Origin: Psammoneis japonica
Taxonomy: Eukaryota
Assembly (NCBI GenBank): GCA_008632985.1
Contig: QPGO01000121.1
Location: 1 to 64,000 of the forward strand
DNA length: 64,000 bases
Direction of reading: 5' to 3'
Shown here one piece after another: positions 840 through 64,000 of this stretch. Numbering within the stretch: position 1 is the first letter of the stretch; each line of letters begins with the position of its first letter. A program made the position numbers and the translations under genes. The notes below the pieces were generated by a model that saw only the letters and a list, made by a program, of their open reading frames with translations, did not search any database and was not told where the DNA came from.

Positions 840-3066
840 CACCCCTGTGGTAGGGGAGCTGTGTGTGTGTGCGTGGTTGTGCGCGCACGGCTTCGCCGTG
901 CGTTGAGTTTTAATGTTAATATCCACACGTATGTGTATATTCCATAAGTAAAAATTCCCATTCCACAGCTCCCCTAAAACTCTAACCACCAAAAACCGAG
1001 GGGTCGGAAGCGCACTTTCGGGAGCTCTTTTTCTCCGCACAAAAAACACGCGTTTCGTCGACTCGACCATGATGATGCCTCGTGGTTCTTCCCCATCGCC
1101 TTCCCAGGACGCCGATCCTACTGACGCCATTGCCAATGACACTGATGCAACAGGCAATGTCATCATTCCGGTTCTGGGTGTGATGCGTACAAAATAAGAT
1201 GCTACAAACTCACACTGTTGTTTGCACGCTCCACCGCCTCCCACAGATGCTGTCACGAATTCCAACGCCGCACCTGCATTTTGGCCCCCTAGCATGCCCG
1301 ATGCTGTTGCTCCTGCCCTTGCTGCCATCACTCCTGCCCTCACTGCCGCAGGTGCTGTTGATGCTGTCATTGCATTTTGCCAATGACGTCCACAATGAAG
1401 TGCCAATGACTCGCACTTCTTTCATTCTCGCCCCACCGCCTCCCACAGATGCTGTCACGAATTCCAGTGCTGCACCTGCGTTTCGGCCCCCTGGCATGCC
1501 CGACACTGTCACTCCTGCCCTCACTGCCGCAGGTGCTGTTGATGCTTGTTGTCTTTTTGCCAACAACGTCCACAACGAAATGCTTGCAACTCACACTTCT
1601 TTCATTCTCGCCCCACCGCCTCCCACAGATGCCATCATGAATTCCAATGCCGTGCCTGCGTTTCGGCCCCCTGGCATGCCCGACACTGCCAATCCCACCC
1701 TTGCTGCTGCAGTTGCTGTTGATGCTGTTGTTGTTTTTGCTTTGGAAGGAACACAATGGATGACGGATGACGGCGGACCAGGAAACCCACGCAACCACGG
1801 CCTGCTGATGGACGACACATCAATGGACATGAATGGTGCCTCTTGGTTGGCTCTCGAGTGCAGTCTAATCTTTGGAACATGCAGACACACATGCAGCTCT
1901 CTGTGGGTTAGAACCTGACAACAATGGATGGCAGGCATGCTTTCACAGTTTTTTAGTTTCAAGTTGGAGAGGTCAGCGAATTGGCATTTGTTTGCAGGTG
2001 ACTTGGCAAGGTTTCAAATGGTGCATGTGACTTGGACACTGCTCTGTTTTCCAGGACCAGGTCATGTGTGCAATTCCACAAGAGGCCACTCTCGCCGTTT
2101 GAGTTCTACATGTGATGTGCAACATGCTGTTTTTGCATGTTGCTAAAATGGAGGCAGGCAGCAACGTGCTTTTGGCAAACACTCACTGTGTTTGTCACTG
2201 TTAGACCTTCAAAACTGGTGCCTTGTCGACAGCCATGCTGCCACTTTGCATGCCGGCACCTTCTCTGCCCGCACTCCATTGGCTGCGTCCTCCTTCACAT
2301 GTTGCTGCGGTTCATCTTGACACTTGTTGTTGGCTCCGATTGGTTCCGCTGGGCTCTGGGTGAGTCTCAATCACCTCCAGATGGACAAGGTTCTGCTTGG
2401 GAACATTGTCCTGAGAAAGGTTGTCACCATGCCTCCTGTCATAGATGCTCCTCTGCCACGCCCACTGAACCTTGACGTCGGTTTGTTGCTTTTGTTTTTT
2501 GACCTGGTTTCGGAGCTGCACCCCAGACGTTTGAGAGAAGGCTCATCAGTGCCTTCCACAACACGGCGATGCGAACGAGAATCCAGTTTTTCCAGGGACG
2601 CAATGACAGGAGCAGACCAATCACGGGCACTGTGTTTGTGTTTCAGGCACAGGATCCGGTGAACAGAACCCAAATCCTCCGGATGGCAAATCGGCTGTGT
2701 TTGGGTAACGACAGCGGGTGCAATGGCACCGGCCATTGCAGGAGGGACTGCCGCATCAGACATGGCAGGCGGGGATGCGTCAGGTGGTGTGGGGGATGAA
2801 GAACGGGAGGTCGTCATGGTCGAGTCGACGAAACGCGTGTTTTTTGTGCGGAGAAAAAGAGCTCCCAAAAGTGCGCTTCCGACCCCTCGGTTTTTGGTGG
2901 TTAGAGTTTTAGGGGAGAATATGGTTCAGGATTTTTCCTGCTACTATTAGCATTTGTGTACAAATGCATAAATAAATGTGAGGACATTTATATAAAAATA
3001 TAATGAATAAGATATAAACTGCCACGTAACCATGACATCACCATATTCTCCCCTACCACAGGGGTG
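840..3066. mobile_element. Non-autonomous TIR DNA transposon, Mutator/MULE-like (9-bp TSD)
   Basis: Perfect 19-bp TIRs cacccctgtggtaggggag (840-858) and ctcccctaccacaggggtg (3048-3066); 9-bp direct repeat cgcgcgcac at 831-839 and 3067-3075; internal ~105-bp inverted repeats at 969-1075 and 2811-2917; no recognisable transposase. Confidence 0.88.
1225..1740 (+). repeat. Three diverged ~180-200-bp tandem units inside the TIR element
   Basis: ccaccgcctcccacagatg...gaattcca...ggccccct.gcatgcccga recurs at ~1231, ~1433 and ~1613; translates as repeated APPPPTDA...AFRPPGMPD. Confidence 0.9.
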
Positions 3067-3294
3067 CGCGCGCACGAGATCGAGATCATCGGAAGCAGGA
3101 TTCTGAAATTTCGATGACGTCAACGGGACATTTCCGACGTGTCACAATGTCGCCACGTGCCGTTGCGTGGCGGCGAAACCTGCCGAAAATTTTGAATCTC
3201 GCGTTCGCTGGAACGGAATCTGATGCATCTCTGTGCATCTGTGAATGTCCATAAGATGCGTTCTTCACCACAAGAGAGACACAGGGCAAAGACA

Positions 3295-7559: not shown

Positions 7560-10230
7560 GTAATCTTCTGCCAGCGACCTGACAACAGCACCACAGAGGG
7601 AAAAAGATGTTTTCTGGTGTGTTGCACATGAGGGGGGAAATGGATCTTGAGGGTTGATGTGAGGTTTTGGCATTCTTCACATGCGGTCAATCCAAAACAT
7701 CTTGATGTCTCAGGCAGCAAAGTGCATGACCCCAACAGCCACAACGCTCAAGTGGAAGGGAGTTGCAGGCAGAACAACACTGGCAAGAGCTCTCCAGAGA
7801 CACTCTCACCCATGATGACTTGCAACATCCTCTGTCTTTTGTGCACCACTGGCTTTGCTGGTTGCCGCTGCCCCCAGGCAACCAAGCAAAAGATCAAGTG
7901 ATTTTCTGGGTCAACAAAAAGCAACATTTTCCATCAAAAGCTGTTGTTGAGCACACACACATCCATTTTCCTTTCCAACAACCTGCTGGCCTGCTGCAGC
8001 TGCAAAGTTTCCTCTTCACCCATTGCTTGCACTTTCTGGTGAGAACAGAGCTGGGCTTGCATTTGGTTGTTTCCTTTTTGGCAAATGCCCTGTCCATTGC
8101 TGGCACACCCTGCTGCACTGCCTGGCCTGAGTGCTTCTTCCTTGTCTGCTGTGCTTTTGAGTTGACATCCATTCTAAACCAGAGCTAACTTGGCCATTGA
8201 GTTTGCTGACACTGTCTTTTGGCTCCAGCCAAGGAAGCAGGGTTGCTGCCTTGTGCGCAGCGTGCTTGTTTGTTTGCAGCTTGCATCACCGGCACACCTT
8301 GAGATGAGTTGTTCACAATGAATTTGCAAATTCTGGAGTGTTGTCATTTGGACAAGATGGCAGGTTGGCATTTCTGGCACTTTTGTCATCTGCCACTGGT
8401 GCTGCTGCTCAAGCAACTTGTGCTGCTGGGGGTGCCCCATTTCTCCATGTCAGCAGAAGATTGCAGTGCAGCTGTGGCTGCAGGCTCTGTTGGGCCACAG
8501 TTGCCTTTTTCTGCTGATGATTTTGTTGTTTCATTGTCTGCAACACCCATGAGAGGCTTCAACAGAGAAACAAAAGAGCCAACAGTGCCAGAGTTGGTCT
8601 TGGCTTTGGAGCAGGCAGCACAGCAGGACTGGCTGGCATCAGCGCAGGTGGGGCATGGGAGGATCAGGTGGCACAGGATGGGCAGCAGGTGGGCTCTTGG
8701 AGGAGTGGGCAGCTTTGAAGCATGCAGCTTTGGAGCTGGTGACTGCTCAGTTTGGCTGGAGGAGCAGCCCCAGTGCATCATGATCTCTCACAGCAGCACA
8801 AGCAGTGTGGGGGACATCCCTCTGGCCAGCAACTCCATTGTGTTTGACCTTAATTTGCATGATTCTGTGTGGGAAAATCCAATGTGCTGCATGTGTTGCT
8901 GTGCTGCGTGGTGGGCCCATGCGTGGTGAGACTGGGTTCATGTTTCTTGACACTGGTGCAACATGTGAAAAAACACATGAGAAATGACAGCAAGTGGTCA
9001 CTCAGCAAAGGTGCTTGCCATTTCTGCAAATCCTTTGATTGTTTGTGCTGTGGCATTGGCCAAACTTTCACAAACACCAGCAAAGTCATCTGCACCTCAT
9101 GGTGTCAAAATCCTGGAATTTTTGCACTGCAGACCCCCCACGAAGTTGCAGGTTGGGGCAGAGCCACACTTTTGGCAAACCAGACAATGAGTTGCTTCAG
9201 ACAGCCACTTTGTGCCTCCACCAAGTGTGCAATGGCAAGTTTAAAGAAGCTGTCAAAAACTGGCACATTCATTGCTGCACCTTTCATTGAGGTGCCACTT
9301 TTGCATGAGTGGGCACCACTGCTGCTTCATTTCCAGCACATCATCAAGCCCAATGTGGGCTTGCTTCAGCAGCACTGTCAACAGCATGTTGCAATGCAAA
9401 GCATCTTTTGTCACACCAAGAAATCACAAAAGCATCAGAAAAGTGGCTTGCGGTGGTGTGCCCCTTTCATTTGGTGCTTCAGGATCATCCATTGTCATGC
9501 CAAAACTTGTGGAGCAATGGCAACGTTGTTTCGGGATCACATTTGCATCAATGGCATTGTTCACAACTGGCCCCATTCCACAAACACAAACAGTGCAAGC
9601 ATGGTCACACATTGTCAACACTGTTCCACAAAAGTGCTGCTTGCCATCAATGTGAAAAACAAGACTGTGAAAGGATTTTGCATGTGTGCCACCAGCCAGA
9701 GCCACCAGCGAGAGCCATCACCACACACGGGCCTTGTTGACTGTCACATCTCCTTGTTTGTGCTCTGCTCCCTTGAAGTTTTCATCCACCAAACATGTGG
9801 TTTGTTCAATCCACAATTCTTGTTTTTGATGCAGGCTCTTCATTGAAGTCAAAGAACGATGGAGGCTGTCCCTTTTGGGAGGAGTGTGTTTTTTGTGAAC
9901 ACCACCCGGCATGTGCAATGCTTTCTTTTGTGCCTCTGACAAAGAAAGGCTCTCCTGAAAGTTCAGTAAAAATGTCCACCAAGCCAAGTGATGCAACACT
10001 CACATGCATCTTGAATGAACTGGTGAATGTCCAGCGCACACGTGTCATTGTTGATCGGCTGATCATTCATGGTGCCTCCGCCAAAACATGAGAAAACTGG
10101 CGTCAAGGCACACAAAAGAATGAACACCTTTCAACACTTTTTGAAACCTTTTTTTAACCATTTTTTGCCGGTCCTTACCTCACATTGTCTCCTAAAGCCG
10201 TTGTCTATTTCACCACAACGAAAGAATGCA
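7560..10230 (-). mobile_element. Heavily mutated transposon remnant, tentatively a MULE-like transposase
   Basis: TpA/CpG-depleted block with only broken Cys/His-rich ORFs; minus-strand fragments VFHIDGK and QKWHL resemble MULE DDE-domain motifs; no TIR or TSD found. Confidence 0.45.
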
Positions 10231-12539: not shown

Positions 12540-14638
12540 CCGTCGAGATCGGACGCTGTTTTTGGCAAGTCAAATGGCATGGCAATTGTTTATCCCAACA
12601 TTACGCAAAGCCACCTCTGCACAGAAGAAAGTGGATGTCAGACCCTCTTTGAGTACAATGCCAAAGTTGTTTCTCCTGTTTTCCAACCAAGGACTCACAT
12701 CAAAAAGTGGCTCAGCTCCTCTGGGATTGATGGCACACAGGTTTCTCAGAGAAGGCACCTCGTTTGTGGGAACAATGCCCACCTGCATTGGTTGGGTCTG
12801 CAAATGGGACATTTCAGGGGAACCTTGAGTTTGGCTCTGCAGGAGTAAATTCCAAGGGAACCACACACCATGCCATCTTGTCCCCAGTCTAGCCACAGTT
12901 GCCCTGAGCCAAATCCAGTGGCAAAATTTCAATTGTTCTAACATGGCAGGGACACTCTTGAGGAGTCAGCCTGGCACTTCTCTCATTGGCATTGTGCTGG
13001 GATCTTGAGCATGGAGTGTTGAACCAGCAAGTCAAAGTCGCCAACAAAAGGGAATCCGACAAGATTTCTATGCCACTTGTTGCACTTGCCTTGGCAGTCT
13101 CCAGCAGTTGTGGGACACCTTGGTGCATCTGCACAAACTCTGCAACTGCTGCAACAACAGGCATCTCTTGATGCTGACTGACAATCATGCAAACCAAATG
13201 ATTCACTCAAAACAGTGAGAACAAAACACATGCAAGGGATTGATGGCAGTGCTCATTTCTTCACAGAAGGTTGCATCAGCCAACTGCATCAGGGTCCATG
13301 CATCTTTCTTGTTGGTGCATCTGGGTCACACAACTTGACACCTCTGAGTCTCACAACTTCACATTCCTGACACACTCCTGCTGCTTGCATTGATGTCTCT
13401 TAAAACACAGTCTGACAATGCTTCTTGGGCTTGGACCCATTTCCATTTGAGACACAAAGCACGCTCTGTCCCAACACAAGCCATCAAGTTCATTGTTGGC
13501 ACCCTCCAGGTCACAGCGTCAAAAAAGGTTTGCATGCCCCATCCAAAAAGTCAATCAAATCATTGAAAGCATTGGCAATTTTTCATTATGCACTCTCTCC
13601 ACAAAATGCCATGCAAAGGCACATCTCTTGTCTTCTCAATGCTGACACTGAAGTCCATGGACCAACCAATTGATCCACAACCATCTGCCAATTGTCTTTG
13701 GGGTCAATTGAGGACCTCCACATTCTTGTGAGTCCACTCTGTCTCTTGGGACTGGCTCAAACAATCTTGCAATTGAAGAAAAAAAATGAAACACACCGTG
13801 AGCAACTCCTCTCTCTTCTCAATCTTGAGCAAGCTCAAATGGCTCATTTGTCATCAGGATTGTGGGGACCACAAACCCAATTGGCGCTGGTGCCACAGGT
13901 GGGACAGCTGACTGTCAATTTCTCCATCAATGGGTGGTTGACATCACCTCTGTCCAGGGCAAACTGCAACCCACCATTCCCAAAGCCTGCAATGCACTCT
14001 TCTTTGACAATTCATTGCTCTCATCATGCTTTGCAGTGCTGCTGCAACATGTGCTGCCTTGACACAATCCCTTGCATCCCACTGCCTTTGCCAGCATTCT
14101 CCTTGGTCTTGTGATCTCTTGCATGGTGCACATCATCCACATCCTGGTGCATGTTGACATCACATTGTGAGGTGTGAAGCAAACATTGGCACAGCAGTGG
14201 ACATGCATTCATGTGCCTGTGGCTCCCAGGTGCTTGCAAAGTCTTCATGTGGGTCCTCCACTTGGCGGTGTCTTTTCTTCCACACACAATTCCCACAGCC
14301 ACTGAAAACAGTCAAGGCAAGTGCAGCAAGTGGTGAAGGAGACCATGTTGGGCTCTCTTTTAGTGACATTGACTTGCCAGCAACATTTGCTCCAAAAAGT
14401 GAGAACAAAATACATGCAGGGGATCAATGATGGCACTGATCTCTTCACTGAAGGACACACCAGACAGCCACGTGAGGATCCACACATCTTGCAGTTGTGA
14501 GGTTGGAAGTCTTGAGAGCAAATTTCACAAAGCAAAGTGCAAATTTAAAGAAGACTCAGCATTTGCAATCTGGCAGCAACAAATCTCTGACAAGAGCACT
14601 CCCCAAGAAATCACTGCACAGCCAAGCAAAGCTGTGAA
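12540..14638 (-). mobile_element. Degenerate repeat/TE of unassigned family (homologous to 62.7-64 kb)
   Basis: TpA/CpG-depleted; 13010-13400 aligns by eye with 63420-63810 (shared ctcttgatgctga.tgacaatcatgcaaaccaaatgattcactc). Confidence 0.7.
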
Positions 14639-14911
14639 NNNNNNNNNNNNNNNNNNNNNNNNNNNNNNNNNNNNNNNNNNNNNNNNNNNNNNNNNNNNNN
14701 NNNNNNNNNNNNNNNNNNNNNNNNNNNNNNNNNNNNNNNNNNNNNNNNNNNNNNNNNNNNNNNNNNNNNNNNNNNNNNNNNNNNNNNNNNNNNNNNNNNN
14801 NNNNNNNNNNNNNNNNNNNNNNNNNNNNNNNNNNNNNNNNNNNNNNNNNNNNNNNNNNNNNNNNNNNNNNNNNNNNNNNNNNNNNNNNNNNNNNNNNNNN
14901 NNNNNNNNNNN
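14639..14911. other. Assembly gap (N run) followed by poly-G
   Basis: N run read directly. Confidence 1.
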
Positions 14912-14929
14912 GGGGGGGGGGGGGTGAGG

Positions 14930-15370
14930 TTGCATTGAAACTGTGAAGATGCAGTTGGCTTGATCAGAGAGGTCAGAAAAAGAGCTTGCTTGGGTCATCT
15001 GTTGGAGCATCTGGCTCGGGGGACACAACATGTGGCTGACCCAGAAATGAAGTTGTGTCTTTTAAACCATGACGTGGCATGTTGATGACTGTTCTTTGGA
15101 GAACATCCTCAGTCATTGAACTTGATCGTGATCTCACCAACTTTTTGGAGTGAATCATCTGGCTTAACAACAACAACAAGTGGCACCTGGTGATGCCCAA
15201 CAATCCATCAGTTTGCATTCTGTGCATGATGTCAAGGCAAACCACAGCCAACACAGCAACCAGGGCAAGTTTGGCAAGTGGCACAGGAAGCCCAATGGGG
15301 AGGATTTCCTTTTGGTGACTCAGACTTGCCGGTTCAACATTCACTCCAAAGAGTCATTGGCACTTGTTGA
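14930..15370 (+). repeat. Copy of the unassigned repeat family (similar to 20330-20700; inverted relative to the 13.0 and 63.4 kb copies)
   Basis: Shares atcatctgg..., caacaacaagtggc, gccaacacagcaaccag.gcaagt and gtggcacaggaagccca with 20480-20690. Confidence 0.75.
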
Positions 15371-15399
15371 GTGTGCACTGACTTGGCAAAAGTCCACAA

Positions 15400-18300
15400 G
15401 ATCATTCATGAGTGTGGCAGAGCATGCAGAAAACAAGCAAAGATTTGTGACCTTCACAAGGATGATGGTGGAAGGGACAACAGAAGCCATGCCAAGAACA
15501 AGAAGTCTTTCCAATGTGAAATGAAGTTTTGTCCTTCTACACTGGACTGCAATGTGCACAAAGAAGGTCTGCAGATGTGTGCAGAAGGAATTCAAACAAG
15601 GCAAATGTGCTGCAAGATCACTGGAGGACATGAAGCACCTTGACTTTGAGGCCAAGCAAGAAACCAAAATTGAAGCTGTCAACAACCACACCTGAGGAGA
15701 ATGCAGACACTCACATGAGAGAGACCTGAAGAAAAAGGAGTGCAAGGACAAACAGATGGAACACAAATTCCATGCCAAGCACAATGAATGCTGCTCAAAA
15801 CTGAAGCAGTTCAATGAAAACAAATCAAGGCATTTGCTTTGATCATGGATGATTGCTGCACAAACCACATGAGGAACAGGGTCATGAGTGACCCAAGCTG
15901 CAACAAAATCAGGGACAATCCAATTGAGTTGCCAAAACTCATCCATTCCCTGATGTTCCATTCAATTCAAGGTTGACACCCATTCCATGCATTGACCAAG
16001 TTCCTGAAGAACACACCACAGGTCGTGAGGCAACAATGAAATGAGTCGTCATGGATCACTTGTCAAGATTCAAGAACAAGACTCCACAACAAGAGATGGC
16101 CTGGGTGGTGAGATGCCAAATGGGTTTGTTGAGAACACCAAGGAGCACAAGAAGGAAAGCAACAGCACCAAGCAAACTGAGCTGAAGAAGACACTGTTTG
16201 ATGCCTGAATGATGCACCTGTTTGTCAAGCACAGTGACAACCATTGCCACAAGACTCTGAAGAAGAGCTTCATGAGAGACTGCAGTCTGTGAAATGACAT
16301 GCACCCCAAGGACTTAGACAGGGCAATGGATGTCTTTTTCAACCATGAACAAGATGACAAACAGCAGAGAAGCAACTCAAAGAACCATGACCGTCACAAC
16401 AAAAGCAGGAAGGAAAAGAATGACAGCAAGAACAAGTGCCAGAGTTGTGCAGAGAAGGCCAAGAACAAAAGCAGAACAACACGCCACTGTTGCAGCAAAG
16501 AGGATCAAAAATCCCCGGAGTGCAGCCACAAAGACAAGATGGCTGCCAAAGATTGGGGCGCAATGAGACCAGAAGAAAGCCAGATGCACAGGGACAGAGT
16601 TGTGCACAAACAAGAGATGGCAATGGAGACCACTCTTTGGCAGACAGTGACATGAGCATCAACGCTGCCAGATTGACAAGATCCACCCATTCAACCCAAA
16701 GCAAGGGATGCTTGGCACTGGTTGCAGCTGGTCAGCAAACTGCAAGAGACAAGCATGAGCAAGTCAAGTGTGGGTGTTGAGACTGATGAGATCATTTTAG
16801 ACAACAGATCTGCCCTCAGCATGGCAGCAAGCTGGAGACCAGTGCATGATGCATGACCAGCAAAGACCAAGATTGACCCACCCACAAATGCAGGAGTGTG
16901 CACCCTGGACAAGGATTGCGCCATGCCAGGATGGGGTGACATGGAGTTGGGATCAAAGGGCATGATGGCAAATGTTCCAAGCCTGAAGGATGTGAAGGCC
17001 AAGCACTGCTTGACATGCAAAGACTGAGTGGCATAAAAGTTTTGACTGCTGAACAAGAAGACTGGCAAACAAGTCACAGTTTTTCAGGCAAACAACATCA
17101 AACTGCACACATTTGCAGTTTTTTGACCATGCCAAGGGCCTGCAAAGAGCAGAGTCACAAGCAAACATGAACCTGGTCAAGAAGAAAACAAAGAAAAGCA
17201 ACAAGAAGCACAGGAGTGCACTGGAGGCCATTGTCCCAACCATGAAGCACAACACCACAGGCTGCTCCAAGAGGAAGGTGGCAAACATTGAGTTGGCACT
17301 GCAGCTGTGCTGCAAGGCCAGTGCACCAGTGCCAGAGATTTCAAATGATTCCTTCATTCCAATCAGGTGAAGAACCTGTTCATTGTGCCAGAGGACATGG
17401 ACAGGATGGTGGACATTTGGGAGCTGCCTGTTGCTGCACTGAAAGGCAAGACCAAACAAGCACACCATCCCCAAGTGAAAACTGATGTGACAGTGACACC
17501 ACCCAAGATGTGCGGCAAACAAAGAGAAGGCATGATGCTGTGCATCTGCATCATGGAAGCATGTGGCACCAAACTGCTGCTCACTGTCAACAAGATGATC
17601 AAGTGTTGTTGATCAAGTGTGTGGCTAAAATCCAAGGAGCGGGCAGACCTGTGTGAGTTGCCAGACATGGTGCTGTGACAACACAGCAAAGCAATGTTCA
17701 ACACAAATTTTGTCAAATGCAACCCCAAGTTCAAGGTCATGCTTGCTGAAATGGCCAGCAGGACAACCCTCAAGCTGTTGCCAGTGAGTGCAAGCAACCA
17801 TGTGCCCAAGGTTGAGTGCAGCATCAAAGCTGTTAAAGAAAGGACCCCAGCTGCTGTGCACCACCCACCTCCCAAGGCCATGCCCAAGCATGTGTGCAAA
17901 CATGCAGTCACAAAAACCACCATGGAAAACATGCATCTGCAGAAAGAGGGCATTTCAAACACCTGCAGCCCACACACCATCATGCAATGCCAAGTTCTTA
18001 ACTGCAACAAACATTTTGAATTTTCCTTTGGGGAATTTGTTCTCTGTCTCATTTTGAGAACAACCCCACCAACACCATGGAGACATGGGCATTGACAGCA
18101 TGTGTGTCTGTGCCAACATTTGACTCTCCAAAAAGGACATTGCACCACGAACCTGCACATGGGGAAACTTCTCAACCCCTGCAAATGCTCCCTCCTCCAT
18201 GCCCTCAACTGACACATGTCAGAGCAGTCAAACAGATGGCACAGGCCCAGGGTGCCAAAGACTTTAAATTTGTGGGCAAAGGCAGAGACAATGTTTGCAA

Positions 18301-19600
18301 TGCTGGCAGGACTGCAGGAGTGGAACAAGATGACAATGACAAAAACAAAAATGAAGACCAAGAAAGTGAAGACAGCACTGACAAAGAATGCAATGAAATG
18401 GACTCAGATGAAGAATCCAAAGAAGCCAACAACACACATCCTGGCTGGTGAAAGGTCCAGTCCCAACCAGCACGACAAGGACACAGAATCAGAAGATGAC
18501 AGCTGCAGCCACCACAAAGAGGATGACCATGAGGACATTGATGATGCAAAAGATGACAACAAATCTCACAAAGACACCAAGGAGCTGAAGATGGAACAGA
18601 GGAAAAAGCCAGAGCTGCAACCCACACAACCACAAGGTCTGGAAAGTCCTTTGCACAAAGGCACAAGAAGCATGAAAAAATGGTCCTGTTCACAGGGGTG
18701 ACCCAAACTGATGAAGAGCAGGAAGAGATCACAAAGCTGGGTTGCTGTGCCTCCATCTGCAACCAAATGTGAGTCCAAATCCAGAGAACACCTTTGGGTG
18801 CAATTCCAAATCAGCAATGGCATCAGTGCAGTTTGTGTGCAAGACAAATGACAGAGTTTCCAAGCTGCCGGAAAGGGTGTTTTGTTTGCCCAACAGCACC
18901 CACTGCATGAATGCCTGAAAGCACTCAAAAACAGAAGGGGCATGATGCCTTCAAGAAGGAGACAGAGAACAACTCCACAATGGGGTGTGTGCTTTGCGCC
19001 AACATCTGTCAAAGAAATTGCTCCAAGTGAAAGGGTCAAGGCCACATGTGCCCCAATGTTCCTTGCAGAGAAACAAGACAGTCAGACTCAAAGGATGAGT
19101 GGTGTGCAATCTACAATGGGACACCAACCACGGAGCAGCTGGACAAAGATGAGTCAGCCAGTCCAGCGGTGTCATTGGAAGGAGTGTTCATGACTGCAAT
19201 TGTTGACACCAAGAAAGGGCGCAACATCATGAGCACCAACATGCCCAACTCATTCATCCAAACTCAGGCTCCAGAAGTCAAAGACGGAAAGGATGGGATC
19301 GTGATGAAGATCACAAAAGTGCCAGCTGATGTGCTTGTCAGCATTGATCTTGACCTTTGTGGACTGCACATGGTCCTGGAAAAGGGCAAGAGACAACTTT
19401 GCATGCAAGTCCACAAGAATCCAGAAAAGATTGGGTTTGTGCTCAACCCATGTGACCCATGTGTTGCCAATTGCACTGTCAATGGGAAACAGCACGCGCA
19501 AGATTCCATGTGGACAATCTGTTGTTGAGCCACCGGAGCCCAAAGTGAACAACAAATTTTTAGGTTGGTGGTTCAAGGAAGCCCTGCTTGCATGACATGT
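15400..19600 (+). mobile_element. Ty1/copia LTR retrotransposon remnant (CoDi-like), hypermutated
   Basis: Protease-like ILDNRSALSM (~16790), integrase-like NHVPKVECSIKAVKER (~17800), RT-like ASPAVSLEGVFMTAIVD...NMPNSFIQT and GFVLNPCDPCVANCTVNGKQ (19150-19490), in copia order PR-IN-RT; LTRs not identified. Confidence 0.85.
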
Positions 19601-20900
19601 CATGGACTGGTCTCTAGAGATCAATGAACATGTGTTTGATGCAACACTGATTGCAGCTTTGAGGATCTCAAAGAGAAGATGTCACAAAAAGACAAGGACC
19701 ATGCACTGAGCTGTGGAGCACTGGCAGATTGCAGGCAGTCACACCAACAGACAAGGGCTCAGACTCCACCCAAGTTGGAGATTTGTGGATGACAAAAGCG
19801 CAGCACTCAACAGTGCAACAGTGGCAGGCTCAAGCCTGTGACATGGACACTCAAGGGAGTTGTGGTCCCTTGATGAAGAGAATCACAAGAGAAGCCGGTG
19901 AAACCCAAGACCAACACAGACTGGTTGGGAACAAAACTGGAACAATTTTTGATGCCAAAAAATTGGCGGCATTTGTCCATCATTGTGACATCAAGGTTGG
20001 AACGCAGGCTGCATGATGTGCTGTGCACATGTCGCAAAATGGAGTTCCCAGAGCTGCTCCGAGAGAGAACTGACAATTGGATCAGCAGCTGCTCCCTGAT
20101 CCACTGGTTGACATCATCAAAGAAAGCATCCATTGTGCCTGCATTGGGCATTTTGTGGAAGCCACAAAGGGCTGCACAAAAGACATGGCCACTTTCTCAG
20201 ATGAAGGACGTTGTGCCGCCAATCTGCACCATGGCAGCCAAGATGTCAAGTGTGTTGTTGGGAGGAGTGGCACCCCAGAAGATGAGACTGTCAAGTTTCT
20301 CATCCTAAATCCCTGGAACATTGGCAAGAGTGGCAGGGTGTGGAGTCTTTGGCCTGGAAATGCAGCTGCTGCATCTTTTGAACCCTGGCATGGCGCATGT
20401 TGACAGCATTGATGGCTGCTCTTTGGAGAGCATTTTTCATCATTGATTGTGATCTTGCCAACTTTTTGCGCTCACTGTTTGGAGCAAATCATCTGGTTTG
20501 ATCACAACAACAAGTGGCGCTTGCAAACATCCAACAATCTGTCAGCACACGGTTTGCATGCACGACATTGTTGGGGCAAGCCGCGGCCAACACAGCAACC
20601 AGAGCAAGTGCAGCGAGTGGCACAGGAAGCCCAGCAGGCACCCCTTTTGGCTACATTGATTTGCTGGTTCAACATCATCAGGAGCATTGGAGCTTTCCAA
20701 GGAACAGCTGCTCAGTTTTTTTGGGATGCTTTGCTTTGTTGCTCGCAGAAAACAACCCCAGAAAGTGCTTTTGCAGAAGCAGGTGCGAGCTGTTTGTGGC
20801 TCCCTCATGCTTGTGGCACACAGTTCCTTCATGAGCACACCTCAAAAGCATCCCAGCACTTGTCTGCACATCTTCCATGGGTGTTGCACAGCATCTGTTC
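19600..20900 (+). mobile_element. Degenerate copy of the unassigned repeat family
   Basis: TpA/CpG-depleted; 20330-20700 is homologous to 15000-15360 and to the reverse complement of 13010-13200. Confidence 0.65.
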
Positions 20901-21295
20901 ACTCACTTCATGAGACACAGCGCGAGAGACAGTGACCCGCACAATTTGCTGCGGTTCCGACAGTGAGATTCGATGATGCAACAGCGAGACGCAGCCACGT
21001 CGTTTCTTCCGCGCCGATTGGCTGCAACATCATTGATGAAACGAAAGCGTTTCCCGCCTTGCGAACTCCGTGTCAATTCTCGCTGGATGGAAGAAGCCTT
21101 TGGCATCTGTTTCTACGAGCACTTCAATGACAGTTCTGTAGGATACCGTAGAATTTGTACTGTCCACGTCATTACTGGTCACGGATGAGCTGATGTCACC
21201 ACTTCTGGCATAAGTCGAAGAACACGGCCACGTCAGCGGCGCTTTTCAGAAATTCCCTCCAACGTTTTCAAAATTTTCGTTGCTCCTGCTCCACC

Positions 21296-22496
21296 ATGAA
21301 GATGACCAACACTTGTAAACTCCTCGCCGCGCTCGGCGTCTTTCACTATGCCGTGTGGGGTACTGCCGCATTCGTATCTCAAGTACCAAAGGTAGGAATG
21401 CCAGCTCTTGGTTATCGCTCGAGACGTGGACGTGGACGTCGATACGAATACGATACGGACTACGAGTTGGAGGAACGGGAAAGAGTTCTAGAGGAGAGGG
21501 AAAGGGATTTGGAGGAACGGGAAATGGAAATGGTAAGCAGTTTCAGACTCTAAACTCTTTGTCTGTATTCCCTATTAGTTCTCACAGAGGACTCACCTGC
21601 GTGATGTTTTTGTGACACAGAGAGACAGAGACATTGAAAGAGAGATCGACATGGATCGCTTTGATCGTAGAGGAGGAGATATTGTATATGATGGGCCCCG
21701 TCGTGGGCGTAGTACTGTTGGACGTGACCTTGGCTTTTCTTCTGGCAGAGGGCCCTATGCACGTCAAGGCAAGGATCTAAGAGGTCCACGTCGTGAAGTA
21801 GTTCAAGGAGGGTCGCTCAAGACGTGGTCATTTGATACCGACGTTGTTGATAGCGTGCGAGTTCTGCTCGAGTCTGAGGGTCGCCCGTTGGATGCAGACA
21901 TCGAATTGTGGCAGGGCCCCGACAACACTCCTCATAAAATGAGGATCTACTCCGAAGATGGATTTATGCGCCCCTTCTGTGCCGTGCTTGACACCCCAGG
22001 CAGCCCCAACACCATCACGGTTCGCAACAACGGCATGTTGGAGTTCCCCCTCGATGCATACGTAACGGAAGACTCCATCGCGACCGGATCTGTTGGCGGC
22101 GAAACGGCTGCTATAGCTTACGACATGGTTTCGTACCCAGAGACAATTCAAGGAGGCGCTCTCCGTACATTCGACTTTGACTCCACCGTCGACAGTGTTC
22201 AAGTCTTGTTGGAGAGCGACGGCCGTCCTTTGAATGCGAGAATCGAGTTACTCCAGGGGCCCAACAACAAAAAGCAAGTCGTCGAGTTGTACACGGACGA
22301 TGGAAACTACCGTCCGTTCTACATGATTGTCGAAACACCAGGAAGTGGAAACGTAGTTAGAATTGTAAACTCCGCCACCATGGAATTTCCCTTGTACGCA
22401 AGGGTAGAGCCGTACTCATTCACCGAGTATGAATACGGAACCGGTCGTGGACGCCGTGGCCGTGTTGGTCCATACAGCAGACGAAATGGGTACTAA
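21296..22496 (+). CDS. Algal protein of unknown function with two tandem homologous domains, plastid-type presequence; intron 21533-21620
   Basis: Signal peptide ending TAAF; duplicated QGG(S/A)L(K/R)T.SF...VLLES.GRPL.A.IEL.QGP.N...PF....TPGS.N domain; phase-0 GT..AG intron keeps frame. Confidence 0.8.
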
Positions 22497-27116: not shown

Positions 27117-29645
27117 ATGGCTGGCAACATGGAATCGATGCTTATGGGAGGGTCGGACGATTCCTCGTCTGACGATAGCGACAATGAGCTTCAGGAGGTG
27201 ACTGCCGGCACGGCTGCATCTGCTGTTGCTGCCGCGGTTGTACCACCACCCGTTGCACCCCCCGCTCCTGCGCCTGCTGCCCCTCCTCCTATTCCAGCTC
27301 CGACGGGTCCGAAAACTCAATCAGATCTAAGTGCTCGCTTAAAGTCGCTGTATTCTCCAGCCAACAAAGCAACACCAACTGCGGGACGAACGGTAGCACC
27401 TGCTCAGGCTGCCAATATGCCTGCTGTCCCAAACATCACTTCGCCACCCTCTCGTGCTCAAAGTGGAAGTTCTCATGGACAGCAACAGCAGATACCACAG
27501 CAAACACAGCAACTGTCATCGCCACAACAGCAGGCAGCAAACGCTTTTCGTCCGCTCGTTCCCAACGCTTCTGCAAAGCCCCATCCACCCAAGCCAAAGG
27601 CTGTTCCTCGACAATCGGATCCCTTTGAACCAACGCCGTTAAGGAAAATGATTGAACGAGAACAACAAGCAAAAGCTACTCCGCCCGCCGCCATGCCGGT
27701 TTCAACCGGAGCACCGACACAGCACATGGCTTCCACAACCGCCATGCCTGTAACCAACAATCGCGTCGCTCCTTCTGGAATCAAAGTGTCGGGTCTTCCA
27801 ATTCACAGTTCCGGTTCTACAGCAAGCACAAGTAGCAGTGTCAGTACGGTTCGAGCATCCAATGTCACGGCGTCACGGGGTGGCACAAGTAGTAGTCGAC
27901 AAGAGATGGATGCCAAGCGTCGCAAGGAAAAGTTTTTAATGTTTACGCGCGTCTTGATGAAGTATCTCGAACAAAAGGATCCTCCCATGCACGCACGGGC
28001 CAAGTCTGTCATTCGAGAGTGTGCGGAAAAGAACAAGGCCAAGGAAGCTGGCTATGAGAGTGTGACGGCGAGTATGCAAACGCGGCTGCGTGTGACTGTG
28101 GGTGATCAGTATTGGAAGCGAGCGGAGAATTATCTGAATCACTTTTTGACTCAAAAGAAATCAAANNNNNNNNNNNNNNNNNNNNNNNNNNNNNNNNNNN
28201 NNNNNNNNNNNNNNNNNNNNNNNNNNNNNNNNNNNNNNNNNNNNNNNNNNNNNNNNNNNNNNNNNNNNNNNNNNNNNNNNNNNNNNNNNNNNNNNNNNNN
28301 NNNNNNNNNNNNNNNNNNNNNNNNNNNNNNNNNNNNNNNNNNNNNNNNNNNNNNNNNNNNNNNNNNNNNNNNNNNNNNNNNNNNNNNNNNNNNNNNNNNN
28401 NNNNNNNNNNNNNNNNNNNNNNNNNNNNNNNNNNNNNNNNNNNNNNNNNNNNNNNNNNNNNNNNNNNNNNNNNNNNNNNNNNNNNNNNNNNNNNNNNNNN
28501 NNNNNNNNNNNNNNNNNNNNNNNNNNNNNNNNNNNNNNNNNNNNNNNNNNNNNNNNNNNNNNNNNNNNNNNNNNNNNNNNNNNNNNNNNNNNNNNNNNNN
28601 NNNNNNNNNNNNNNNNNNNNNNNNNNNNNNNNNNNNNNNNNNNNNNNNNNNNNNNNNNNNNNNNNNNNNNNNNNNNNNNNNNNNNNNNNNNNNNNNNNNN
28701 NNNNNNNNNNNNNNNNNNNNNNNNNNNNNNNNNNNNNNNNNNNNNNNNNNNNNNNNNNNNNNNNNNNNNNNNNNNNNNNNNNNNNNNNNNNNNNNNNNNN
28801 NNNNNNNNNNNNNNNNNNNNNNNNNNNNNNNNNNNNNNNNNNNNNNNNNNNNNNNNNNNNNNNNNNNNNNNNNNNNNNNNNNNNNNNNNNNNNNNNNNNN
28901 NNNNNNNNNNNNNNNCACTGCAAATGGTCAGCCTGTTGTTGCCGGATTTACCCTTCCAGGAAGCGCCAAACCTGTTCCACCGGCCCCGCCGGTAGCAGTT
29001 CCTCCTGTACCGCCTGGTCCACCTCTTGTTGCTGCACCAGCTGCTCCAGCTCCAGTCCAGGCGCCCGCTCCCACTGCGGCATGGTTCAATGAGGAAAAGG
29101 CAGAAGAAGACAAGACTCTTGCCATGCTGAGTGAAGCGACCGATATTTACTTGAAATCGATATTGGAGAAGGCGATTCATTCGGCTCGGCAGCGTGAGAA
29201 TTTGGACGGAATTCGTTTGTGGCATTTACAGCACAACACAATGCAGAAACCTCCTCTTGCACTGCGGCTAGGCTGTGATGTGAAGCGTCAGGTAGCGCAG
29301 GCTGCAGGGAATGCTGCTAAAACGACGCAACGAATGGAAGAAGCGCTGGAACGGCAAAAGGGAATTCCAGCCAAAGCCAGAGCATTGGATAGTGACGAAA
29401 CGTTGTATGAAGCTTCGAGTATGGCCGACCTCGCCTTGAGGCCCATGCTGGCAAAAGCTGCTCCTGAGGCTGACCTTAATGCAAAGAGGAGCTATGAAGT
29501 ATATGGGGGAAAGGATAGCGGCGCTCCTCCGTTTGGGCGAGTTCCAAAGAAAGTCAAGATTGAGGTTAAAGATTTTCAATTTGGCTTGGAGAACTCTTGG
29601 TTTCCTCACCAACGGACGGACATTGCTGCTTCGTCCTTTATTTAG
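27117..29645 (+). CDS. TAF4-like transcription factor (RST-like domain and histone-fold region), interrupted by a gap
   Basis: Pro/Gln-rich N-terminus; KEKFLMFTRVLMKYLEQKD helical domain; after the gap MLSEATDIYLKSILEKAIHSARQR resembles the TAF4 histone fold; continuity across Ns is unverified. Confidence 0.6.
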   Translation: MAGNMESMLMGGSDDSSSDDSDNELQEVTAGTAASAVAAAVVPPPVAPPAPAPAAPPPIPAPTGPKTQSDLSARLKSLYSPANKATPTAGRTVAPAQAANMPAVPNITSPPSRAQSGSSHGQQQQIPQQTQQLSSPQQQAANAFRPLVPNASAKPHPPKPKAVPRQSDPFEPTPLRKMIEREQQAKATPPAAMPVSTGAPTQHMASTTAMPVTNNRVAPSGIKVSGLPIHSSGSTASTSSSVSTVRASNVTASRGGTSSSRQEMDAKRRKEKFLMFTRVLMKYLEQKDPPMHARAKSVIRECAEKNKAKEAGYESVTASMQTRLRVTVGDQYWKRAENYLNHFLTQKKSXXXXXXXXXXXXXXXXXXXXXXXXXXXXXXXXXXXXXXXXXXXXXXXXXXXXXXXXXXXXXXXXXXXXXXXXXXXXXXXXXXXXXXXXXXXXXXXXXXXXXXXXXXXXXXXXXXXXXXXXXXXXXXXXXXXXXXXXXXXXXXXXXXXXXXXXXXXXXXXXXXXXXXXXXXXXXXXXXXXXXXXXXXXXXXXXXXXXXXXXXXXXXXXXXXXXXXXXXXXXXXXXXXXXXXXXXXXXXXXXXXXXXXXXXXXTANGQPVVAGFTLPGSAKPVPPAPPVAVPPVPPGPPLVAAPAAPAPVQAPAPTAAWFNEEKAEEDKTLAMLSEATDIYLKSILEKAIHSARQRENLDGIRLWHLQHNTMQKPPLALRLGCDVKRQVAQAAGNAAKTTQRMEEALERQKGIPAKARALDSDETLYEASSMADLALRPMLAKAAPEADLNAKRSYEVYGGKDSGAPPFGRVPKKVKIEVKDFQFGLENSWFPHQRTDIAASSFI
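28166..28915. other. Assembly gap (N run)
   Basis: N run read directly. Confidence 1.
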
Positions 29646-62699: not shown

Positions 62700-64000
62700 G
62701 AGTCAAGTTGAAAAAGACTCCAAAAGAGCCAGGGGGTGAGTTGAAAGACTCTCCACACCTCAGCTGGTGCCGCACAAGAAATGGGTGCTGAGAGGGCATG
62801 TTGAAAAGAACACCTCTGCTCCTGAAGTGTGGCTGCACCTCTCTGTCTCTTTTCTTCTTGCTGTTTGTGTTTGCACAGCTCCCATTGACTTTTTTTTTAT
62901 CCTGGAATTGCCTTTGCATTTGAATTGAATTTTTTTGCAGTGCTCATTTTTTAAAATGCAAAAATTGTTCACAGCCACACCACCACTCACACCCGATCGC
63001 GCACCAAAAAACGAGAACATCATGCACCGCGATCAAAGCACGATGATGTGATGGCAATGGTTGATGTTTCTCCAAAATGCAGTGGTCTAACCACAATAAT
63101 TTGATGTGCGTGTGACCTTTTACACACAACAAACACAAAATGCATGGGAGTTGGTGGTTGGACCACCTCCTTCCCACAGACTTGTGGCTTGATGTTTTTC
63201 ACTTTCACCATGGTGAAGCACGGTGAAACTCAGAAAAAATCATGCAAATCACAAGCTGTTTAACCAAATTCAAGCTAAAAAAAACAGCAACCAGCTCCCA
63301 TTGAGCTGTGCAAAAACATGCACCAAAAACTTGGGTTCCAAGTGGGCAAATTTCAGGCTGGCAGAGCAAGTTTAAAAACATGCCTGAGCGGCACTGTGCG
63401 CAACAGAGCACACAGCAGCACCATCCTGGTGTCACACCAACAAGTCAATGTCGCCAAAAGGGAATCCTGTGAGGTCTTCCATGCTGCTTCTTGCAGTTGT
63501 TGTGGCAGTCTGTGGCAGCTGTGGTTTGCCTTGGCATCAATGTAAACTGAACAACTGCTGAAATGACAGGCACCTCTTGATGCTGAGTGACAATCATGCA
63601 AACCAAATGATTCACTCCAAAGAGTGAGAGACACTCGCAGGGAATGTGGTGACACTTGTGATCTCATCAGAGAAGAACACTCCATCCAACCACACATCAG
63701 GACCAACATCCTTCTCATTCAACATGTCTGGGTCACATGATGTGACACCCATGTCTCACATTTTGATCTTCCAACACACACTCCTGCTGCTCCTCGCATT
63801 GATGATCTGACATTCCCTGGCTTCATGATTGCACTGAGGCTTGGCATTGCCCTCTGGCATGCTCATTGCAAATTTGTCAGGTGCGTCAATGCTGTTGTCT
63901 GACAGCTCACACAAAGCGAACATCTGAATTGAGCTGCAATCTTCAAAGTCAAGGGGAGGAGCATGTGTCAAATTTCTTGTTTGCAATCCACCCCACTTGA
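62700..64000 (-). mobile_element. Degenerate TE/repeat, same family as 12.5-14.6 kb; runs off the window
   Basis: TpA/CpG-depleted; 63420-63810 homologous to 13010-13400. Confidence 0.7.

Follow-up and report, generated by a model that had tools for sequence, protein, structure and literature searches.

Dead retrotransposons in the 64,000-nucleotide stretch of Psammoneis japonica DNA analysed here (the window) have lost nearly all of their TA dinucleotides to TG or CA, fastest where the A precedes C or T, and this points to a transposon-directed mutation process. In the literature searched, we found no description of such a TpA-erasing process. The data show the direction of the change, its confinement to the elements, its context rule and its independence from CpG loss, and as the best explanation of the data as a whole we regard the process described here as probable. 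According to this model, relics of LTR retrotransposons would carry the result of a transition hypermutation that stayed within the elements, with TpA being converted to TpG or CpA (A:T to G:C) on both strands, intermixed along the element. The rate would be set by the base 3′ of the changed A, TAC changing no more slowly than TAT, and TAA and TAG more slowly than either; in the complementary reading, GTA and ATA would be faster than TTA and CTA. A TA with a pyrimidine before and a purine after it, written YTAR in contrast to the mixed and RTAY flank classes, has no TAY on either strand, so that it would go last and, being lost last, would dominate the remaining TAs. The process would act apart from the CpG to TpG/CpA decay of the same blocks, and individual copies would be struck in bursts.

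Depleted blocks and their identity

The depleted blocks and the features within B3 are as follows (o/e, observed/expected ratio):

1291..2901, no strand assigned: B0, strong TA depletion (o/e 0.09), mild CG depletion (o/e 0.59)
7562..10154, no strand assigned: B1, TA- and CG-depleted; 5 TAs, 4 of them YTAR; TA o/e 0.03, CG o/e 0.15
12655..14638, no strand assigned: B2, TA- and CG-depleted; YTAR context in 5 of its 9 TAs; LTR-like pieces in inverted orientation, with relatives in B3 and B4
14912..21113, forward strand: B3, relic of an LTR retrotransposon, depleted in TA and CG, with 15 TAs over 6202 bases; begins at the assembly gap 14639-14911
15001..19620, forward strand: internal part of the decayed Ty1/copia element; TA o/e 0.04, CG o/e 0.10, TG 2.16, CA 1.70
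15082..15340, forward strand: 5′ LTR-like repeat of B3; 70.7% identity to 20409-20675 over 273 columns
19031..19528, forward strand: reverse-transcriptase remnant; 165-aa open frame containing a single Tyr
20409..20675, forward strand: 3′ LTR-like repeat of B3; CGs kept, TAs lost
63277..64000, no strand assigned: B4, TA- and CG-depleted; 2 TAs; related to B2; runs past the window end

The depleted blocks are decayed LTR retrotransposons, and the one at 14912-21113 is of the Ty1/copia type. The open frame of its reverse-transcriptase remnant has 741 relatives at E ≤ 0.001 (phmmer), RVT_2 is the only Pfam family common to all eight relatives tested, seven of them scoring above the curated cut-off, and tblastn with 150 relatives gave coverage of 16197-19777 on the forward strand; direct Pfam scans of the three forward frames of B3 gave no match. 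The elements are dead, with stops in all frames. B2 resembles 15302-15342, 20464-20674 and 63436-63804, and B4 aligns with 13023-13395 in B2 (71.8% identity over 383 columns). B1 is presumed to be a transposon relic of unassigned family; it had no Pfam match, and its longest frame had no protein relative. B0, whose 8 TAs comprise 5 YTAR, 3 mixed and no RTAY, is flanked by 126-nt inverted repeats (969-1094 and 2792-2917), not by LTRs, 180-nt tandem repeats also being present; nothing in it marks a retroelement, but its TA signature is the same. The TA o/e of B1-B4 is 0.03-0.07 as compared to 0.54 outside, their CG o/e is 0.08-0.18, and their TG and CA lie at about 2 (1.7-2.1). At the block edges 7561, 10155 and 21114, TA density returns abruptly to normal, over a distance of tens of bases.

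Context of the remaining TAs

Exactly 13 TAs remain in 15001-19620, ten of them YTAR (TTAA at 15063, 15165, 17834, 17999 and 18265; TTAG at 16315, 16798 and 19561; CTAA at 17626; CTAG at 19615) and three in other contexts (CTAC at 15538 and 19112; ATAA at 17034), and this dinucleotide count matches the number, contexts and positions that the initial annotation had given by eye. If the YTAR share of the 1753 window TAs outside the depleted blocks (16.8%) is taken as the null, ten of 13 has p = 3e-6. B1-B4 together hold 31 TAs, 21 YTAR, 9 mixed and 1 RTAY, against background shares of 16.8%, 51.4% and 31.8%. The excess stays (p = 3e-5) against the 31% YTAR that a first-order model gives from the NT and AN frequencies of the blocks themselves, a null that covers the suggested explanation by poly-A/T composition alone, and against the 23% expected of TAs newly made by transition from CA/TG in the blocks (p = 2e-7). 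The same tendency had been claimed for the other blocks and is indeed seen there, with 11 of the 18 TAs beyond 15001-19620 being YTAR (p = 3e-5). The bias was replicated in B0 (five of eight) and in an unrelated metagenome contig (seven of seven), and 33 of 46 TAs (72%) are YTAR when window blocks and replicates are pooled. Counted by half-sites, a purine lies 3′ of TA in 78 of 92 cases as compared to 43% in the background; the half-site test showed no significant effect of the second neighbour, and only the adjacent base matters.

The assumption that all of these TAs are survivors did not hold, as at least two of the 13 in 15001-19620 are new. The TA at 17034 is a window-specific transversion and thus new, and the TA at 17999 looks newly made, since the AAC of the window stands at a position that is Asp in homologues. 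As the window blocks are saturated and old, some present TAs will have been re-created, and biased creation could account for some of the YTAR excess.

Expressed as the TA share of pyrimidine-purine steps, blocks versus background, the flank classes stand at 3.2 versus 10.4% (YTAR), 0.6 versus 14.1% (mixed) and 0.14 versus 20.7% (RTAY). The derived TA survivals of 0.31, 0.044 and 0.007, which presuppose that TA contexts in the ancestral elements were distributed as in the normal DNA of the window, fit a², ab and b² with a = 0.55 and b = 0.08. The tyrosine codons tell of the same loss: 16 probable ancestral Tyr codons in the window now read Cys (6), His (4), Tyr (1) or other (5), and those preceded by a pyrimidine gave Cys (TGY) four times and His never, whereas those preceded by a purine gave His four times and Cys twice. 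Among the 150 best database relatives, 24 have less than 1.2% Tyr, and at five conserved Tyr columns these 24 hold 38 Cys, 35 His, 5 Tyr and 21 others, a Cys:His ratio nearer to 1:1 than the expected ~2:1.

Direction of the change in metagenome copies

The direction was read from two copies of one metagenome family, the near-intact L002, whose polyprotein frame has a single stop, and the hypermutated L011, in which all frames are broken; this family is tied to the window by the shared reverse-transcriptase family and the same signature, not by identity. The two copies are 91.8% identical over 1478 columns. At the 37 TAs of L002, L011 has kept four and shows TG at 17, CA at 15 and another state at one, and there is no TA in L011 that is absent from L002 in the aligned columns. 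From L002 to L011, 89% of the TAs changed (33 of 37) versus 6% of other positions. YTAR was kept in four of six cases and other contexts in none of 31 (Fisher p = 2e-4), so that here, as in the flank-class shares of the window, TA loss depends on the flanks; independence from them had been named in advance as the check on the proposed target. The rates of A>G were 21/29 in TAC, 5/16 in TAT, 3/11 in TAA and 3/18 in TAG, at most 13% in every non-TA context, and by half-sites 32/74 in TAN versus 10/205 in AAN. Where only one strand has TAY, the A of that strand changed at 13 of 17 sites (p = 0.025; pairwise L002/L011), and TAC won 17 of 21 half-site contests. Direction and context in this pair, with the kept YTAR sites and the TAC rate, support a preference for TAY. 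The TAY lesion context of the initial annotation thus stands as far as flank-dependent loss is concerned, to which the kept YTAR sites, the TAY strand, the TAC contests and the Tyr codons all speak, and falls as an exclusive target, because YTAR has also been lost, by ~70% in the window (R/Y-class comparison) and at two of six sites in L011. The data therefore support TAY as a rate preference.

The strands are intermixed in L011, where the 17 TG and 15 CA outcomes form 14 runs versus 16.9 expected. Strand choice was 12:6 in a four-copy alignment and 7:9 in three lightly mutated copies; in the latter, 15 YTAR were kept and 2 lost versus 73 kept and 26 lost in other contexts, YTAR retention being not significantly better. 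Within its first 240 bases, L011 has 13 TAs and is not depleted, and either flank or an unaffected LTR would explain this. L003 has 21 YTAR, 12 mixed and 9 RTAY versus 7.0, 22.4 and 12.7 expected, a YTAR excess without RTAY depletion for which the half-site rule does not account. The same signature was found in metagenome contigs from other projects.

Separation from CpG decay

TpA loss is separable from CpG decay, as it occurs with little CpG loss in B0 (TA o/e 0.09, CG o/e 0.59), in 20500-21113 (0.03 and 0.65) and in L011 (0.10 and 0.51, with 0.50 and 0.36 in its sister copy L002); within 20900-21113 there is no TA at all, at a CG o/e of 1.25. The CpG loss of the blocks is faster after a pyrimidine, the CG share of pyrimidine-purine steps being 2.3% in yCGr versus 5.2% in rCGy. 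TCGA makes up 1 of the 102 surviving CGs in the blocks versus 265 of 2949 in the background, and the ratio of TCG/CGA to background is 0.09.

Timing, chemistry and alternative explanations

We infer that the change occurs in the chromosome, after integration, because the LTR-like repeats of B3 differ from each other (over 345 columns, 6 TG/CA double differences, 7 CG-versus-TG/CA and 2 TA-versus-TG, besides 35 other transitions and 37 transversions) and because TG-to-CA double changes separate paralogous contigs from the window at 15608-9, 16847-8 and 19045-6. Alternatively, an adenosine deaminase with single-stranded nucleic acid as its substrate could have edited retrotransposon RNA and minus-strand cDNA in the course of retrotransposition, before the edited copy was inserted, as an A-to-G counterpart of APOBEC-edited proviruses and ADAR-edited retroelements. 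Such editing would be copy-specific and burst-like, as in L011 with its 89% TA loss at 6% other divergence, and it would agree with an L002 that does not look younger than L011 by CpG, with the sharp edges of the depleted zones and with the undepleted start of L011. We nevertheless consider it unlikely, since both strands are equally hit without run structure, sites derived from TA and from CG distinguish the two repeats of B3, B0 carries the signature without LTRs, the TA-free 20900-21113 reaches past the CG-depleted zone, and the 3′ preference (C, then T, then A/G) is unlike that of ADARs. As to the chemistry, enzymatic adenine deamination in T-A-Y is the preferred candidate, although taken by itself it is less likely than not, and it is about evenly matched with a route through modified thymine. 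The 41 long ORFs scanned within the window contained no deaminase domain, in line with the earlier statement that no TadA/ADAT-like enzyme is encoded there. In the thymine route, the T of R-T-A would be enzymatically modified (5-hydroxymethyl- or 5-formyluracil, or base-J-like) and then read or repaired as C. All sequence results fit this equally, T>C at GTA being the complement of A>G at TAC, and A>G at TAY and T>C at RTA are indistinguishable by sequence because they are one event seen from opposite strands; moreover, 5-hydroxymethyluracil in dinoflagellates and base J in kinetoplastids lie preferentially at T before A. However, near-complete T>C at 33 of 37 TAs would require a strongly miscoding derivative, the 5hmU:A pair is weakly mutagenic, and base J has not, to our knowledge, been reported in diatoms; we rate this route as rather doubtful.

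The YTAR excess might instead be a steady state of biased creation: once all TAs had been erased, C>T changes at CpA would generate new ones, with a preference for a C that follows a pyrimidine, giving YTA and TAR. New TAs do exist (17034 and 17999), the old blocks offer 2661 CA/TG dinucleotides as raw material, and CpG loss is itself faster after a pyrimidine; but no new TA is seen in L011 among those aligned to L002, all four kept there are YTAR, biased creation predicts ~54% YTAR (YCAR 321 versus YCAY 274 in the blocks) where 72% is seen, and Tyr codons (TAY) have demonstrably been destroyed, which makes this an improbable full account. Still less probable is collateral error-prone repair, with T:G mismatches, common where methylated transposons suffer 5-methylcytosine deamination, leading to mismatch repair and polymerase-eta-like A>G at WA. 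WA-motif A>G errors occur in immunoglobulin somatic hypermutation, polymerase eta favours A>G at TA and AA, and TpA and CpG loss coincide in B1-B4, but TA is hit far above AA, conversion is nearly complete, and B0, 20500-21113 and L011 lost TpA with little CpG loss. That no process is at work, and that the signature is an assembly or sequencing artefact or reflects elements evolved to avoid TA and CG, is hardly credible. The public short-read run X1 has contigs that together tile 15039-21300, each piece differing at 0-6 letters, although X1 is the only run with the stretch and may be the source of this assembly, so that the tiling is not independent support. Low TA that looks like an effect of codon usage does occur in the metagenome loci L004 and L005, where most of the TAs left are YTAY when read on the coding strand. 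Artefact and avoidance are contradicted by the tiling, by the recurrence of the signature in other metagenome projects, by the direction from L002 to L011, and by the state of the elements, which have stops in every frame and Cys or His in place of Tyr.

Comparison with known systems

Repeat-induced point mutation (RIP) changes C:G to T:A, chiefly by turning CpA into TpA, and leaves TpA enriched (PMC2621366). The window blocks share with RIP of ascomycete fungi the dense transitions confined to transposon copies, the sharp edges, the dinucleotide specificity, the action on both strands and the dead elements of skewed dinucleotide content that are left behind; the change found here is the mirror image of RIP, in that A:T goes to G:C and TpA disappears. 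TCG-biased hypermutation has been reported in basidiomycete transposons (PMC3318451). The blocks resemble those transposons, and methylated transposons undergoing CpG decay, in losing CpG to TpG/CpA, fastest in TCG/CGA, but this covers only the CpG half of the signature, as B0, 20500-21113 and L011 show TpA loss without it. Bacterial TadA edits U-A-C in the anticodon loop of tRNA-Arg, and the early adenine base editors derived from it prefer TAC/YAC; the T-A-C hot spot found here matches both. We know of no natural TadA/ADAT that mutates chromosomal DNA, and by this analogy a TadA/ADAT-like deaminase is a candidate only. In animals, fossil retroelements edited by ADAR or APOBEC are strand-clustered and were edited before integration, with ADAR preferring a 3′ G and APOBEC changing C. 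Copy-specific bursts of one kind of transition are common to those elements and ours, whereas here the strands are intermixed, C and T are preferred on the 3′ side, and the LTR-like repeats differ mutually.

TpA-depleted blocks of the window

A 1-kb dinucleotide scan of the window, combined with finer mapping, delimited four blocks (B1–B4) in which TpA and CpG are both nearly absent and TpG/CpA approximately doubled: the observed/expected ratio (o/e) in these blocks is 0.03–0.07 for TpA and 1.7–2.1 for CpA/TpG, and the window outside the blocks has a TA o/e of 0.54 and a CG o/e of 0.99. In a fifth block, B0, the signature is seen for TpA but not for CpG. The edges at 7561, 10155, and 21114 are sharp, with the TA density back to normal over tens of bases, and the normal DNA adjoining the blocks contains 35 TAs per kb.

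Depleted blocks and assembly gaps
1291–2901: B0, fifth block; TA o/e 0.09, CG o/e 0.59
7562–10154: B1; TA o/e 0.03, CG o/e 0.15
12655–14638: B2; TA o/e 0.07, CG o/e 0.08
14639–14911: N run (assembly gap) inside the transposon nest; the 5' end of the B3 LTR is unassembled
14912–21113: B3; TA o/e 0.04, CG o/e 0.18
28166–28915: N run (assembly gap)
63277–64000: B4; TA o/e 0.04, CG o/e 0.17

Stop codons interrupt every frame of B3, and a Pfam search of B1, B2, and B3 (15 frames, stops read as X) gave no match, so that the assignment of B3 to Ty1/copia is based on its homology to members of this group. B3 contains direct LTR-like repeats at 15082–15340 and 20409–20675, which lie 5.3 kb apart, are only 70.7% identical, and abut the assembly gap on the 5' side. 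A full HMMER search with its frame 19031–19525 yielded 741 relatives at E <= 0.001, RVT_2 is present in all eight tested relatives of this reverse transcriptase (RT) frame (above the curated cut-off in seven), and tblastn with the 150 best relatives as queries covers 16197–19777 on the plus strand. With these relatives and this coverage, B3 appears to be a Ty1/copia relic, too decayed for a direct Pfam match. B2 and B4 have sequence in common with each other and with the LTR of B3, and for B1 neither the Pfam frames nor a protein search with the longest frame revealed a recognizable relative. B0 lies within a 1.9-kb segment (969–2917) whose ends are 126-nt inverted repeats (93% complementary) and which includes 180-nt tandem repeats; no retroelement feature was seen in B0.

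Among the runs listed, X1, a public sequencing run, contains the stretch, two further runs come from the same sample, and no RNA run is given as containing it. Contigs of X1, which may be the source of the assembly itself, tile 15039–21300 with 0–6 differing letters each. A total of 383 X1 contigs have at least 80% likeness to the stretch, and as about 375 of them are additional to the tiling ones, the B3 family must be large; among viral contigs, no relative was found. The X1 contigs differ from the window by 333 transitions and 152 transversions, and the site-level view covers 40 of these 485 places, too few for a spectrum.

The remaining TAs are predominantly YTAR

The initial annotation had counted 13 remaining TAs in 15001–19620, 10 of them in YTAR context, and both the numbers and the positions proved exact. 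YTAR, with a 5' pyrimidine and a 3' purine, has no TAY on either strand, the mixed class (YTAY or RTAR) has it on one, and RTAY on both. Among the 1753 TAs of the window outside the blocks, 295 (16.8%) are YTAR, 51.4% mixed, and 31.8% RTAY, and relative to this background the excess in 15001–19620 has p = 3e-6. As the hypothesis arose from this very stretch, the fair test is given by the other blocks, and there the same tendency was found, as had been claimed, with YTAR accounting for 11 of 18 TAs (p = 3e-5). In total, B1–B4 contain 21 YTAR, 9 mixed, and 1 RTAY, and B0 has YTAR at five of its eight TAs and no RTAY. Poly-A/T composition does not explain the excess, since the first-order expectation from the NT and AN frequencies of the blocks is 31% (p = 3e-5); newly arisen TAs, made by transition from the CA/TG of the blocks, would be YTAR in 23% of cases (p = 2e-7). 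Only the nearest neighbor matters: a purine follows TA in 78 of 92 half-sites (background 43%), and the base beyond it has no significant effect. The scarcity of TA and the YTAR bias are thus confirmed and replicated. Some of the present TAs are not survivors. At 17034, 70% of the paralogue depth in X1 contigs has G where the window has T, which is therefore a private transversion, and at 17999 the homologues encode Asp where the window has AAC, so that this TA was probably made by G>A.

TA is changed to TG or CA

A metagenome scan with alignment A3 of Tyr-poor relatives as query (an earlier alignment, A2, was too diverse) returned 15 loci, four of which (L002, L007, L010, and L011) form one family with 88–93% identity. 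L002 has a polyprotein frame with a single stop, a TA o/e of 0.50, and a CG o/e of 0.36, whereas all frames of L011 are broken and its TA o/e is 0.10 and its CG o/e 0.51. In an alignment of 1478 columns with 91.8% identity, L011 has, at the 37 TAs of L002, TA in 4 cases, TG in 17, CA in 15, and something else in 1; 32 changes from TA to TG/CA are thus opposed by none in the reverse direction, as the aligned columns of L011 hold no TA that is absent from L002. The change of 89% of the TAs but only 6% of the other positions shows directional hypermutation and not drift.

Tyrosine codons of the window point in the same direction. The conserved-Tyr test yielded 4 codons with strict thresholds and 16 with a looser threshold, and these 16 probable ancestral Tyr codons now encode Cys (6), His (4), Tyr (1), or other residues (5). 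The 150 best relatives that the RT remnant has in the database include 24 with less than 1.2% tyrosine, and five conserved Tyr columns in these 24 proteins contain Cys 38 times, His 35 times, Tyr 5 times, and other residues 21 times. The Tyr-poor database proteins are evidently gene-caller predictions from hypermutated copies.

The flanking bases influence the loss of TA

The initial interpretation, A>G at TAY on both strands, is partly supported, as the context rule holds: TAY is a preference, with YTAR kept in L011 at 4 of 6 sites and other contexts at 0 of 31 (Fisher p = 2e-4), but it is not the exclusive target, since YTAR is also lost, by about 70% in the window and at 2 of 6 sites in L011. 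All seven TAs remaining in L011:251–3343 are YTAR. A>G changes in L011 affect 21 of 29 TAC, 5 of 16 TAT, 3 of 11 TAA, and 3 of 18 TAG, and no context other than TA exceeds 13%. Because each TA has one A per strand, the changed strand reveals the relative rates: TAC has 17 wins and 4 losses against other half-sites, and where only one strand has TAY, this strand was the changed one 13 times out of 17. Tyr codons of the window that follow a pyrimidine became Cys in four cases and His in none, and those after a purine became His in four cases and Cys in two (small n, p = 0.07), an outcome by preceding base that the rule predicts.

As transitions leave the purine/pyrimidine pattern unchanged, the share of TA among pyrimidine-purine steps can be compared by flank class between blocks and background. 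It is 3.2 vs. 10.4% for y_r, 0.6 vs. 14.1% for the mixed class, and 0.14 vs. 20.7% for r_y, and the ratios of 0.31, 0.044, and 0.007 fit independent half-sites with a survival of 0.55 for TAR and 0.08 for TAY, assuming ancestral context shares like those of the background. The mixed class of the blocks has 57.0% TG and 38.9% CA (background 32.8% and 28.1%), which fits the half-site rule and is inseparable from biased CpG decay. The strand-specific reading is weakened by several results: the strand asymmetry is 12:6 in a four-copy alignment and 7:9 in three lightly mutated copies, the Cys:His ratio of 38:35 in the Tyr-poor relatives is close to even, and the metagenome copia relic L003 (positions 1251–3500) has 21 YTAR, 12 mixed, and 9 RTAY where 7.0, 22.4, and 12.7 are expected, a YTAR excess without RTAY depletion that the half-site rule does not explain. 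In addition, two further metagenome loci, L004 and L005, are low in TA with the remaining TAs mostly YTAY on the coding strand, which we read as codon usage and hence another phenomenon.

TpA loss is separable from CpG loss

The loss of CpG to TpG/CpA in B1–B4 (CG o/e 0.08–0.18) matches the decay pattern that deamination of 5-methylcytosine would produce. Its flank rule is opposite to that of TpA loss, being fastest in TCG/CGA: among the surviving CGs of B1–B4, 16 of 102 are GCGC and 1 of 102 is TCGA, compared with 141 and 265 of 2949 in the background. TpA loss can be separated from CpG loss not only in B0 but also in 20500–21113 (TA o/e 0.03, CG 0.65) and, within it, in the 214 bases at the right edge of B3 (20900–21113), which contain zero TA but 19 CGs (o/e 1.25, normal), so that the TA-free zone extends past the CpG-depleted zone. 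The copy L011 likewise has less TA but more CG than L002, and L003:1251–3500 is nearly CG-free and has kept part of its TAs.

Site of action and candidate mechanism

Taken together, our comparisons show that TpA undergoes an A:T to G:C hypermutation confined to transposons, with T-A-C/T preferred. The process cannot be genome-wide, as the adjoining DNA has its normal 35 TAs per kb and L002 has kept its TAs. We favor an action on chromosomal DNA after insertion, because the TG (17) and CA (15) changes in L011, equivalent to 17 A>G and 15 T>C on one strand, are intermixed (14 runs vs. 16.9 expected), the LTR-like repeats of B3 differ from each other (TG/CA at six sites, CG vs. TG/CA at seven, TA vs. 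TG at two), paralogous X1 contigs show TG-to-CA double changes relative to the window among the differences listed, and B0 lacks retroelement features. Editing before integration would agree with the copy-specific burst in L011 and with its TA-rich first 240 bases, which hold 13 TAs before a TA-free region starts at a (GA)n run just upstream of an ATG; these 240 bases are either host flank or an LTR/leader spared by hypermutation. We regard such early editing as unlikely.

Although the pattern is similar to the hypermutation of mobile elements by RIP or APOBEC/ADAR, it lacks the defining features of each. Fungal RIP changes C:G to T:A and thus raises TpA and lowers CpA/TpG, whereas TpA is erased here (32 changes from TA to TG/CA vs. 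0). RIP acts on duplicated sequence only, before meiosis, and needs a homologue of the RID-type methyltransferase. According to the article text of a survey of 60 diatom species, the RID-related DNMT4 is present in 31 of them, with unknown function (PMC9998398). A fossil of ADAR-type RNA hyperediting would have strand-clustered A>G, and is opposed by the intermixed A>G and T>C of L011. The WA signature of polymerase eta comprises A>G at TA and AA, and here TAN is changed in 32 of 74 cases and AAN in 10 of 205.

With regard to chemistry, enzymatic deamination of adenine would be our preferred reading, by resemblance of the motif. Bacterial TadA edits U-A-C in tRNA-Arg, and early adenine base editors have a T-A-C-like preference. 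Adenine deamination of the TadA/ADAT type calls for a target A with a 5' T(U) and a 3' C, and the 21 of 29 changed TAC in L011 correspond to this in motif alone. A modification of the T in G-T-A, the complementary reading, would fit the sequence equally well, and we consider it unlikely. For the deaminase, we tentatively propose, as a possibility that is itself doubtful, that an adenine deaminase that acts on DNA, and is plausibly a paralogue of TadA/ADAT drawn to repeats or heterochromatin, turns T-A-C/T into T-G-C/T on both strands of chromosomal transposon copies, and that this could be a genome-defence, A-to-G counterpart of fungal RIP in diatoms and perhaps their relatives. If so, every tyrosine codon as well as TATA-like and poly(A) signals would be destroyed. 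In agreement with the initial annotation, which placed no such enzyme in the window, no deaminase domain was detected among the 41 long ORFs scanned.

To our knowledge, the natural transposon hypermutation systems either alter cytosine, as RIP and APOBEC do, or work on RNA, as ADAR does. A process that removes TpA from transposon DNA by A:T to G:C changes and has T-A-C as its hot spot would be a further, new kind of genome defence or mutagenesis, and it would explain the tyrosine shortage in many "proteins" that public databases predict for diatom-like retroelements. For other genomes, two values could serve as an index: the TA o/e of the repeats and, among the TAs still present, the share of YTAR. 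Should an adenine deaminase prove to be the agent, DNA adenine editors, which we know so far only as engineered enzymes, would also exist in nature, and this enzyme would be the first of natural origin known to deaminate chromosomal adenines. A loss of TpA in diatom transposons is not reported in the article texts searched, which include PMC4504042, PMC9998398, and PMC9258296.

Genes surrounding the blocks

Genes are dense in the window, which is nuclear DNA from a diatom or close relative. The ORF at 21579–22496 matches DiatomPyrShell in Pfam (E = 4e-85), and other long ORFs are ordinary eukaryotic genes. This diatom pyrenoid shell protein gene lies 0.5 kb off the edge of a transposon block. 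The ORF at 36593–39519 contains six CCDC53/WASH-like repeats with units of 177–195 nt, followed by three ORF pieces that jointly cover a formin FH2 domain, and this region is probably a single formin gene interrupted by introns or breaks of the frame.
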